Shown here one piece after another: positions 35,876-51,167 of a stretch of DNA of 64,000 nt. The notes beneath the pieces are model-generated. The model worked only from the letters and a program-made list of their open reading frames with translations, ran no database searches and had not been told where the DNA came from. A program made the position numbers and the translations under genes. Every line of letters starts with the position of its first letter. Within the stretch, counting starts at the first letter, position 1. Source of the stretch: Escherichia coli. GTDB taxonomy: Bacteria; Pseudomonadota; Gammaproteobacteria; Enterobacterales; Enterobacteriaceae. Location of the stretch: NCBI RefSeq assembly GCF_030384885.1, contig NZ_CP128613.1; one strand, written 5' to 3'.

Positions 35876-35906
35876 GCAGAGGGCAATCACTGATTGCCCT
35901 CTGCCT
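35876..35906 (-). terminator. Rho-independent terminator downstream of putP
   Basis: Perfect hairpin cagagggcaatc-actg-attgccctctg followed on the minus strand by a T-rich tract. Confidence 0.55.
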
Positions 35907-48861: not shown

Positions 48862-49476
<615 letters not shown>

Positions 49477-49496
49477 TCTTCAACAGGAGGATACGC

Positions 49497-49724
49497 ATGC
49501 CAACTCAAGAAGCGAAAGCTCATCACGTCGGTGAATGGGCATCTCTGCGCAATACGTCGCCGGAAATAGCCGAGGCCATTTTCGAAGTCGCCGGGTACGA
49601 CGAAAAAATGGCGGAAAAGATTTGGGAAGAAGGTAGCGATGAAGTGTTAGTCAAAGCCTTTGCTAAGACCGATAAAGATTCGCTTTTTTGGGGCGAACAG
49701 ACCATCGAACGTAAAAACGTTTAA
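49497..49724 (+). CDS. yccJ: Small protein YccJ (75 aa)
   Basis: 75-aa ORF 20 nt downstream of wrbA. Confidence 0.85.
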
Positions 49725-49732
49725 TCCTGAAC

Positions 49733-49759
49733 CTCCCCCGTAGTGAACGGGGGAGTTTT
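49733..49759 (+). terminator. Rho-independent terminator after yccJ
   Basis: ctcccccg-tagtgaa-cgggggag followed by tttt. Confidence 0.75.
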
Positions 49760-50259
49760 CGATTATTCATTGACCAACGTCTCATGTCCTGTTATTACTG
49801 TGAGATATTCAATCACGTTATCAAATAAAAAAATCGATATCATTGCGGTAAGCTTGTTATTGATTATAAATATGGGTAATAAGCGATATCCAGCATGAAT
49901 TTGATTGTACAGGGTATTTCCTATATAGCCATTGGTTAAATCTTGAAGATAAGATACCTCCGGCTGAAAAATCCATCCCGGCAATGAAGGATGTGATATT
50001 TTCGTAATTCTCTTGCAGAATAAACAACCCTGGATACGCTCTGAATACAAGGAAATTTTCCAATAAATTATTTATTCATCAATACTCCCCGGCGAGGATC
50101 ATCAAAATATCTCATTATCTTTTAAAACTGCCCAGCCCGTTATAACGGACGTTATCTGGCGCACGCTGAAGTGGGCATGATACTCACTTTCATTAAAATG
50201 CTCGACATGATTTGCTAATCGCTTAGCTAGATAATTGACGTTCAGTCTGTGCCAAATTT

Positions 50260-50619
50260 TTAGCGAAAAATAGCAAATTTAAGCCGGGAATTTATCAAAG
50301 CATCCTCATTTACTTCACCATGAACAATAAAGTCACGCATAAACTGCAGGTGTTTAATTAATAAAATCCATTCACTTTCAGTAAGATAGTTTTTCCCACG
50401 CAGATTATAATACAGAGATTTGATTAATGGGATCTTCTGCTTATGGCGCTTTGACCGCGCTGAGCACAATATTTGTTCTATCAGGCCAAGCGTCCCTTTC
50501 TGACGCAACCAGCACCGGAGTTCAGACTGCGCGCTAATGCCGCGAGCCACCGACAAATGTATTTGGGTAAGCAATGCGTATAAACCTAATAAAAACGCGT
50601 CGTGATAATACCGCTTCAT
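50260..50619 (-). CDS. Hypothetical protein (119 aa) in an AT-rich insertion; C-terminal R-x4-H-G motif (HEPN-like?)
   Basis: ATG at 50619 preceded at 12 nt by the previous ORF's TAA and an SD-like GAGGTGGG; translation MKRYYHDAFLLGLYALL...HLQFMRDFIVHGEVNEDALINSRLKFAIFR. I recognise no family; the reading frame is open in a very AT-rich context. Confidence 0.5.
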   Translation of the reverse strand: MKRYYHDAFLLGLYALLTQIHLSVARGISAQSELRCWLRQKGTLGLIEQILCSARSKRHKQKIPLIKSLYYNLRGKNYLTESEWILLIKHLQFMRDFIVHGEVNEDALINSRLKFAIFR

Positions 50620-50631
50620 TACCCACCTCTG

Positions 50632-51000
50632 TTATCGTAATTTTTTAAACAAATAATCATATAAAATTTCGGCAATGAATTCTGCATGTTCACGTCGCAC
50701 AATGACATTCATAACGTAATATTGCGCAGCAATTTCATTGATAAAATGTTCAGGCAGTATGAATACGCGTGCATAAGCCGAGTATATTTCCAGTATTTCA
50801 TTTGAGATGTTTTCAAGATCAACGCAATAATTTGTCACATCATAAAAAAGATTAGCGTATTTTTTATTAATTATGCTAAGGCATATAAATGGGGCATTTA
50901 ATTTTTCACACAATTGCCAGTGCGTTCTTTCATTTTCTCCCTTCCATGTATACTTCATTTTGTCAGCCATCCTTTGATTTACGCGTCTGAAGTTTACCAC
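50632..51000 (-). CDS. Hypothetical protein (up to 122 aa; start may be GTG 51000 or the internal ATGs MADK / MKYTW) in an AT-rich insertion
   Basis: Open frame immediately upstream of and co-directional with the 119-aa ORF; candidate -10 TATAAT on the minus strand at 51036-51041. No family recognised. Confidence 0.45.
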   Translation of the reverse strand: MVNFRRVNQRMADKMKYTWKGENERTHWQLCEKLNAPFICLSIINKKYANLFYDVTNYCVDLENISNEILEIYSAYARVFILPEHFINEIAAQYYVMNVIVRREHAEFIAEILYDYLFKKLR

Positions 51001-51098
51001 TGTGTCTGGGGTAAACCATGCGTTCTATGGTAAAAATTATACGAGATGTGGCGCTGCGTAATATTCTGCTCCCTCAATATATTTCTGGTGAATATGTT

Positions 51099-51131
51099 CC
51101 AGGTTAATTGGGAAGATCTGCATGTGATCTT
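51099..51131. repeat. Perfect 13-bp inverted repeat aattgggaagatc-N7-gatcttcccaatt
   Basis: Seen directly; lies ~40 bp beyond the agp stop at the edge of the AT-rich insertion; candidate terminator or protein-binding palindrome. Confidence 0.6.
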
Positions 51132-51167
51132 CCCAATTTTATGACTACAAAATGTCAATAGCCGGGT

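Follow-up and report, generated by a model that had tools for sequence, protein, structure and literature searches.

A perfect 13-bp palindrome behind agp, in an A+T-rich segment carried by few Escherichia coli strains, is a candidate terminator-type RNA hairpin

The DNA analysed here, which we call the window, is a stretch of 64,000 nucleotides from Escherichia coli (NCBI RefSeq assembly GCF_030384885.1, contig NZ_CP128613.1). Between the core gene agp, which encodes glucose-1-phosphatase, and the terminator hairpin of yccJ, the window carries a segment of 1,405 bp (49763-51167, 37% GC) that is extra relative to K-12. This segment comprises three small minus-strand genes, co-directional with agp, and a perfect palindrome lies inside it. 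The features of the locus are as follows.

49733-49755, plus strand: terminator hairpin of yccJ (wrbA-yccJ), CTCCCCCGT-agtga-ACGGGGGAG, then TTTTCG; counterpart of the shared agp/yccJ terminator of K-12
49763-49769, no strand assigned: left junction repeat, TTATTCA, which contains the ORF3 stop codon and matches the right repeat
49763-50063, minus strand: ORF3, about 100-105 aa when intact (strain N3 and the divergent E. coli lineage L006), frameshifted here in the T-run at 49826-49833; found in Escherichia only
50102-50619, minus strand: ORF2, 172 aa when intact, here 119 aa (50260-50619) with a 1-nt deletion near 50281
50632-50958, minus strand: ORF1, 108 aa, intact; found in Escherichia only, no family match
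About 50281, about 50074 and 49826-49833: frameshift positions in the cassette
51106-51138, no strand assigned: perfect palindrome, with arms at 51106-51118 and 51126-51138 and the spacer TGCATGT at 51119-51125
51110-51118 and 51126-51134: G+C-richer 9-bp core of the palindrome, GGGAAGATC/GATCTTCCC
51137-51142, plus strand (antisense to agp): TTTTAT run after the hairpin, its first two T belonging to the arm
51168-51175, no strand assigned: right junction repeat, TTATTTCA, which contains the agp stop codon
51168-52409, minus strand: agp, with its stop codon at 51168-51170 and the palindrome in its 3' untranslated region

The palindrome, AATTGGGAAGATC-TGCATGT-GATCTTCCCAATT, consists of two 13-bp arms with 100% complementarity around a 7-nt spacer, and two GATC sites (AGATCT) lie inside it. 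A previous, sequence-only reading of this DNA had found the perfect 13-bp inverted repeat and given its sequence exactly, but had placed it at 51099-51131, whereas its true position is 7 bp further right, at 51106-51138. The same reading put the repeat about 40 bp past the agp stop codon; the measured distance is 29 nt. Its estimate of about 100 bp to the first ORF is right if ORF1 is taken in its longest form, from GTG 51000 (105 nt from the far edge of the palindrome), but not from ATG 50958 (147 nt), the start chosen by PGAP in the identical strain 2013C-4282.

Simulated 64-kb windows (first-order Markov) contained a perfect inverted repeat this long, at least 13 bp with a loop of 3-10 nt, in only 2% of cases, and simulated 1.4-kb segments with 37% GC in 0.05%. 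The palindrome is therefore not a product of chance; it is a real, non-random feature. By length it ranks second among the perfect hairpin palindromes of the window, which has nine distinct perfect palindromes with arms of at least 10 bp, several of the others being A-tract/T-tract terminators or G+C-rich REP-like repeats. The longest, GCAGAGGGCAATCACTGATTGCCCTCTGC (35876-35904, arms of 14 bp), lies 44 nt past the stop codon of a 502-aa minus-strand gene, is followed on that strand by ATTTTCTC, and looks like an ordinary terminator. When we searched 5,426 E. coli genomes (blastn) with an 86-bp query around the agp-proximal palindrome, only five carriers matched, once each, so the palindrome is single-copy and belongs to no repeat family. 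A repeated element (REP, MITE or attC) was rejected on these grounds, and a scan of 100,044 species genomes for the core pattern returned just 28 scattered, unrelated matches.

The end of agp is well described in K-12. There, agp and wrbA-yccJ converge on a common terminator, the hairpin T-1066062, and RNA-seq shows that both transcription units use it (Conway et al. 2014, mBio, PMC4161252). The K-12 gap between yccJ and agp is made up of this shared hairpin only (...taaccagcgaCTCCCCCGCttctcGCGGGGGAGttttctgTTATTTCAccgc). The palindrome is missing from it and so belongs to the extra 1.4-kb segment; the proposal that it is part of the island is borne out by this empty site, and it is not the ancestral agp terminator. 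In the window, the yccJ hairpin at 49733-49755 sits on the other side of the cassette, 1.4 kb downstream from agp. The published mapping and this position agree with the earlier statement that the K-12 terminator of agp is the yccJ hairpin, here 1.4 kb away. The first stable hairpin after agp in the window is the palindrome. The yccJ hairpin has itself diverged: between the cassette-bearing strains and K-12 (L001 1750-1776) there is a compensatory C-G to U-A change at the top of the stem, and the loop reads agtga in the former and ttctc in the latter.

The segment occurs in five of 5,426 complete E. coli genomes. The three genes also occupy this site in E. albertii (L009-11), E. fergusonii (L012-14) and a divergent E. 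coli lineage (L006-8). In E. albertii, identity to the window is 87.9% for agp, 87.6% for the spacer, 92.4% for ORF1 and 86.9% for ORF2; cassette divergence roughly tracks that of the flanking genes, and outside the palindrome the spacer differs by 8-14% among lineages. The two junctions are formed by a direct repeat of 7/8 bp, TGAA(A)TAA in the agp sense, such that agp ends in ...GGTGAAATAA and ORF3 in ...AATGAATAA. K-12 keeps a single copy of this repeat, which is the pattern expected from a deletion between microhomologies. We therefore do not retain the earlier description of the segment as an insertion: the fact that E. albertii and E. fergusonii have it at this site too, together with the microhomology junctions, favours an ancient segment that was later lost. 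Probably it is old in Escherichia and has disappeared from most E. coli, which seems likelier than insertion at this site. A plasmid or phage origin of the cassette was looked for and none was found, the only match being a Proteus chromosome filed as a plasmid.

Several side observations concern the history of this neighbourhood. In E. fergusonii (L012) the cassette is closer to the window (ORF2 98.3%, ORF1 95.7%) than are agp and wrbA (about 94%), a hint of inter-species exchange of the region. The agp allele of the window is only about 94-95% identical to K-12 agp, and upstream of it lies an A+T-rich (32-38% GC), hypervariable yccE-like gene (52704-53957, 417 aa) that is 83% identical to its L006 counterpart, the value for yccJ being 99.6%. 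Old, divergent haplotypes thus extend to the region upstream of the palindrome as well. The gap between agp and yccJ is a hotspot that has taken up other insertions, among them a REP-like insert with a duplicated terminator hairpin (strain GF66.2, L024 560-760) and ISEc13 (a derivative of E2348/69, L025 3280-4653). In E. albertii an rve-family insertion sequence replaces the ORF3 region (L009 4928-6299), and in a metagenome contig an IS66 fragment lies directly upstream of ORF1 (L013 2-103).

A palindrome near one boundary of a variable, A+T-rich segment, in a gap where other strains carry insertion sequences or REP-like inserts, might be a recombination site or the end of a mobile element, such as an att- or attC-like site, a terminal inverted repeat or a subterminal hairpin of the IS200/IS605 type. 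However, it lies 29 bp inside the junction and not on it, the left end of the segment has no similar hairpin or repeat, and no integrase or transposase is encoded within the segment. Its single-copy state across 5,426 genomes, junctions that bear the signature of a microhomology deletion (a 7/8-bp direct repeat with two stop codons), and the occurrence of the segment at one site in three species with a divergence similar to that of its flanks all argue in the same direction. The recombination-site proposal of the sequence-only reading, for which neither a partner site nor a nearby recombinase appears, is largely refuted, and we regard it as scarcely tenable.

We next consider the genes that the palindrome separates from agp. 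None of ORF1-3 matched Pfam, NCBIfam, PADLOC or PHROGs, and for ORF1 and ORF3 no relatives were detected outside Escherichia. A full HMMER scan of 1.8 billion proteins placed ORF2 in a small family from Enterobacterales with 26-36% identity, which is an unannotated family. Homologues with 30-36% identity, from Citrobacter werkmanii and Enterobacter, each overlap a PAAR-Rhs toxin gene at its stop codon. At the C-terminus of these toxins a DPxGL motif precedes a domain of about 115 aa; against the Pfam family Tox-ART-HYD1 (cut-off 25 bits), the Citrobacter domain reaches the cut-off with 25.4 bits and the Enterobacter domain, with 14.1 bits, falls below it. In Proteus, a member of the family belongs to an array of small genes located next to T6SS genes. 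Because its homologues directly follow PAAR-Rhs toxin genes, ORF2 is probably an orphan immunity-like protein without a toxin, as judged from the gene position of those homologues. We also asked whether ORF1 is a leftover toxin C-terminus and rejected the idea, as it does not resemble the Rhs C-terminal domains encoded ahead of ORF2 homologues. The predicted structures of ORF1 and ORF3 (pLDDT 44 and 46) are too poor for the fold to be judged.

The cassette does not look well maintained. Besides the frameshifts of the window, strain N3 (L003) has an independent and different 1-nt deletion in ORF2, and ORF3 is broken in N96 in another way than in the window. Such differing lesions among strains point to independent pseudogenisation and a decaying cassette. 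A small protein encoded across the palindrome was considered as well and rejected: neither a 54-aa sense ORF nor a 32-aa antisense ORF is conserved, with stop codons in L006, no start codon in E. albertii and a frameshift in E. fergusonii, and no frame on either strand is open across the spacer in all lineages.

To see how the palindrome itself has evolved, we compared its five distinct versions (the window group, the N3 type, L006, E. albertii and E. fergusonii). The arms are perfect throughout the window/N3/N96 group, the N3 type having a loop change only. L006 has a U-G as its innermost pair (agp sense) and a broken outer pair; E. albertii has changes at two outer positions; and in E. fergusonii one arm has lost a nucleotide and the GATC of the other has become GACC. 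One or other GATC is gone in L006 and E. fergusonii. The TGCATGT spacer is identical in these three most divergent lineages and has one change in the N3 type. All six arm changes in the three lineages are one-sided, with none mirrored. Nine of 13 pairs are invariant, and across the five distinct sequences none of the 13 pairs shows a compensatory change. Substitutions amount to 6/78 in the arms vs 51/528 elsewhere in the spacer. All five lineages keep the 9-bp core stem; no lineage has more than one altered pair in it, and every such alteration leaves a G-U wobble on one strand. In this small sample of five, the arm sequences thus give no sign of selection, be it for pairing or for a symmetric protein site. 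A metagenome scan for further variants of the palindrome yielded two N3-like contigs only.

These comparisons bear on the proposal that the palindrome is an operator, which had been coupled to a cassette promoter between it and ORF1. Three promoter-like elements occur in the region.

50802-50831, plus strand (antisense): promoter-like site TTGAGA-18-AATAAT inside ORF1, with 10/12 matches, pointing to the palindrome and agp
51036-51041, minus strand (the cassette strand): perfect TATAAT without an acceptable -35, 78 nt ahead of the ORF1 ATG
51153-51158, minus strand: perfect TTGACA that precedes the palindrome by 14 nt in the agp sense

The TATAAT, 65 nt downstream of the palindrome, is the sole candidate element for a cassette promoter; its E. 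albertii counterpart is TATGAT. The TTGACA has no usable -10 at 16-18 nt (TGGGAA) and is probably not a promoter. A promoter scan, which left the TATAAT unreported, predicted nothing next to the palindrome or in the spacer, and the lone TATAAT and the lone TTGACA do not appear to form a promoter. Of the cassette promoter suggested earlier, then, there remains a perfect -10, but it has no -35 and the scan is silent.

A -10 without a -35 is typical of activator-dependent promoters. The presence of one near ORF1, together with the perfect dyad symmetry of a palindrome upstream of that gene and a spacer so nearly unchanged among lineages, could mean that a dimeric DNA-binding protein controls the cassette by binding the palindrome as an operator or activator site. 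The half-site centres would be 20 bp apart, and the palindrome would be centred about 93 bp upstream of the start predicted by the TATAAT. However, none of ORF1-3 matches a DNA-binding family in the databases named above, ORF2 being immunity-like, and the cassette offers no recognisable regulator gene. No other copy of the half-site TGGGAAGATC exists in or near the cassette; with one mismatch allowed, the window has 4 matches vs 3.1 expected, and the two that lie outside the palindrome are 37 kb and 3.6 kb away. The 86-bp query matched the five carrier genomes only, the arms have decayed asymmetrically, with one or other GATC lost in L006 and E. fergusonii, the promoter scan is empty next to the palindrome, and 13-bp arms exceed what protein recognition needs. 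Compared with the sites of CRP, NsrR, LexA and FNR, the palindrome appears to show only partial half-site resemblance or the wrong spacing. We consider an operator unlikely and set this earlier proposal aside.

As RNA, the palindrome forms a stable stem-loop. The surrounding 71-nt stretch folds at -21.9 kcal/mol in the agp sense and -22.6 in the antisense (z about -4), and none of 200 shuffles folded as well. With 13 bp, 5 G-C pairs and a 7-nt loop, the hairpin has the stem-loop of an intrinsic terminator (stem of 5-14 bp, short loop). What it does not have in the window is a U-tract 3' of the stem in the agp sense: the tail there is AAUUAACC, with 2 U in 8 and a TransTermHP-style tail score of -2.04, and a terminator scan of the window left the hairpin unreported on both strands. 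In the window lineage the AAUU tracts on the two sides of the stem pair with each other, which leaves these 2 U. The agp-sense tail marginally qualifies as a terminator U-tract in L006 (AUUUAA, AUUUAACC, score -2.76) and in E. albertii (AUUUUA, AUUUUACC, score -3.04). For comparison, the shared hairpin of K-12 scores -4.37 towards yccJ and -2.48 towards agp. That hairpin works despite its poor agp-sense tail, and a poor tail therefore does not exclude a terminator role for the palindrome.

On the opposite strand, the TTTTAT (UUUUAU) run, whose agp-sense counterpart is AATTAACC, is kept in all five lineages. The plus-strand tail AAUUUUAU scores -2.55 in the window, where no transcript is known in that direction, and from -3.26 to -3.79 across E. 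fergusonii and E. albertii, the latter figure being that of E. albertii. A consensus scan calls the hairpin terminator-like in E. albertii only, and there only on the opposite strand. There are no convergent transcription units around the palindrome, agp and ORF1-3 all being on the minus strand, and a search of 49400-52600 against Rfam 15 on both strands (E up to 1) gave no match.

A U-run on the plus strand also invites the reading that the palindrome terminates a cis-antisense RNA of about 300 nt that would cover the start and leader of ORF1 and modulate this gene. The promoter-like site inside ORF1 matches at 10/12 positions in the window and in L006 and at 9/12 in E. albertii, and the conserved U-run of the hairpin follows on the same strand. 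But the site lies within the coding sequence of ORF1, which trivially explains its conservation, and promoter-like sites of this kind are no commoner than chance gives, with 5 found vs 7.4 expected in shuffled sequence. This reading is speculative, and we rate it as very unlikely. More broadly, that the palindrome is a regulatory element of the orphan immunity-like cassette, be it the site of a host factor or the terminator of a cis-antisense RNA, seems unlikely to us; if true, a regulatory palindrome would gate immunity genes whose cognate toxin is missing from the genome.

We tentatively favour another role, namely that the palindrome, as a weak terminator or 3'-end hairpin, divides agp from the cassette; to this we assign slightly less than an even chance. 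Here the palindrome would act as RNA: in the 3' untranslated region of agp it would form a stable stem-loop, a terminator-type hairpin bordering a core gene and an A+T-rich cassette. In the agp direction it would bring about weak or partial intrinsic termination, protect the 3' end as a hairpin, or do both. Most agp transcripts would end or gain stability at this point, and read-through alone would reach the decaying genes and stop at the yccJ hairpin. In the opposite direction, the U-run might stop antisense transcripts from the A+T-rich cassette before they enter agp. We infer, in other words, that RNA polymerase terminates, or RNA ends lie, at the palindrome.

Several findings are consistent with this role. 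The hairpin begins 29 nt after the agp stop codon, in non-coding DNA; it folds strongly, and its core stem and the antisense UUUUAU are kept in all lineages; its agp-sense tail is better in L006 and E. albertii, and that of the shared K-12 hairpin is equally poor. The same core stem, moreover, is found in a bidirectional terminator of Yersinia pestis (see below). Against it count the agp-sense tail with its 2 U in 8, the silence of the scan on both strands, a stem of 38% G+C and a 7-nt loop, which is long for a terminator. The absence of compensated pairs (0/13) and an arm substitution rate about equal to that of the rest of the spacer weigh on the same side, as does the fact that agp and the cassette are co-directional, so that no known gene needs the better, antisense side. 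The earlier suggestion of a replacement terminator for agp is accordingly upheld in part, by a hairpin that is the first stable one after agp, and weakened by the missing U-tract and the silent scan.

The main rival of a terminator role is that the palindrome has no present function and is a neutral relic that came with the A+T-rich cassette, such as the former terminator of a donor gene; this we regard as possible, if on the doubtful side. Quasipalindrome correction is a known mutational process, and an imperfect palindrome may have been made perfect in the window lineage by replication template-switching. Perfection is indeed limited to the window/N3/N96 group, and L006, E. albertii and E. 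fergusonii each have two symmetry-breaking changes, none of them compensated, with an arm substitution rate not below that of the flanks. The segment also seems to be under relaxed selection, with two of its three genes pseudogenes here and ORF2 lost independently in N3, and the best terminator orientation faces no known gene. On the other hand, so long a palindrome is rare by chance (2% per window), and the 9-bp core stem has been kept with no more than one changed pair per lineage in a spacer that has diverged by 8-14%. Even without a function, a hairpin located here would still form in agp transcripts and influence them.

On its own the palindrome is one more terminator-like hairpin and matters little. 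What it clarifies is the probable end of the agp transcript in the few strains in which the shared K-12 terminator lies 1.4 kb away. Its context illustrates, on a small scale and in nature, how orphan immunity genes are lost through frameshifts and microhomology deletion.

The cassette resembles orphan immunity genes of Rhs/T6SS polymorphic toxins in that homologues of ORF2 occupy a toxin-adjacent position; it differs in that no toxin gene is present here and that ORF1 and ORF3 have no relatives outside Escherichia. The hairpin AAAAACCGGGAAGATC...GATCTTCCCGGTTGTTTTTT of Y. pestis (in L042) is a textbook bidirectional terminator whose 9-bp core stem is identical to that of the palindrome, a likeness that is a coincidence and not homology. 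The Y. pestis stem is flanked by A and T tracts, and the E. albertii version of the palindrome is alike, its stem being preceded by AAAAUA and followed by AUUUUA, whereas in the window the AAUU tracts pair with each other and leave 2 U in the agp-sense tail.

The closest comparison is with T-1066062 of K-12. The sequences of the two hairpins are unrelated, and their builds differ: the K-12 stem has 10 bp, nearly all G-C, and a 5-nt loop, and the palindrome has 13 bp with 38% G+C and a 7-nt loop. T-1066062 stands between convergent genes and the palindrome between co-directional ones. Yet both are the first stable hairpin after the agp stop codon, both turn an A-rich side towards agp and have a U-run on the far side, and with comparable stabilities both have poor agp-sense tails, at -2.48 in K-12 and -2.04 in the palindrome.
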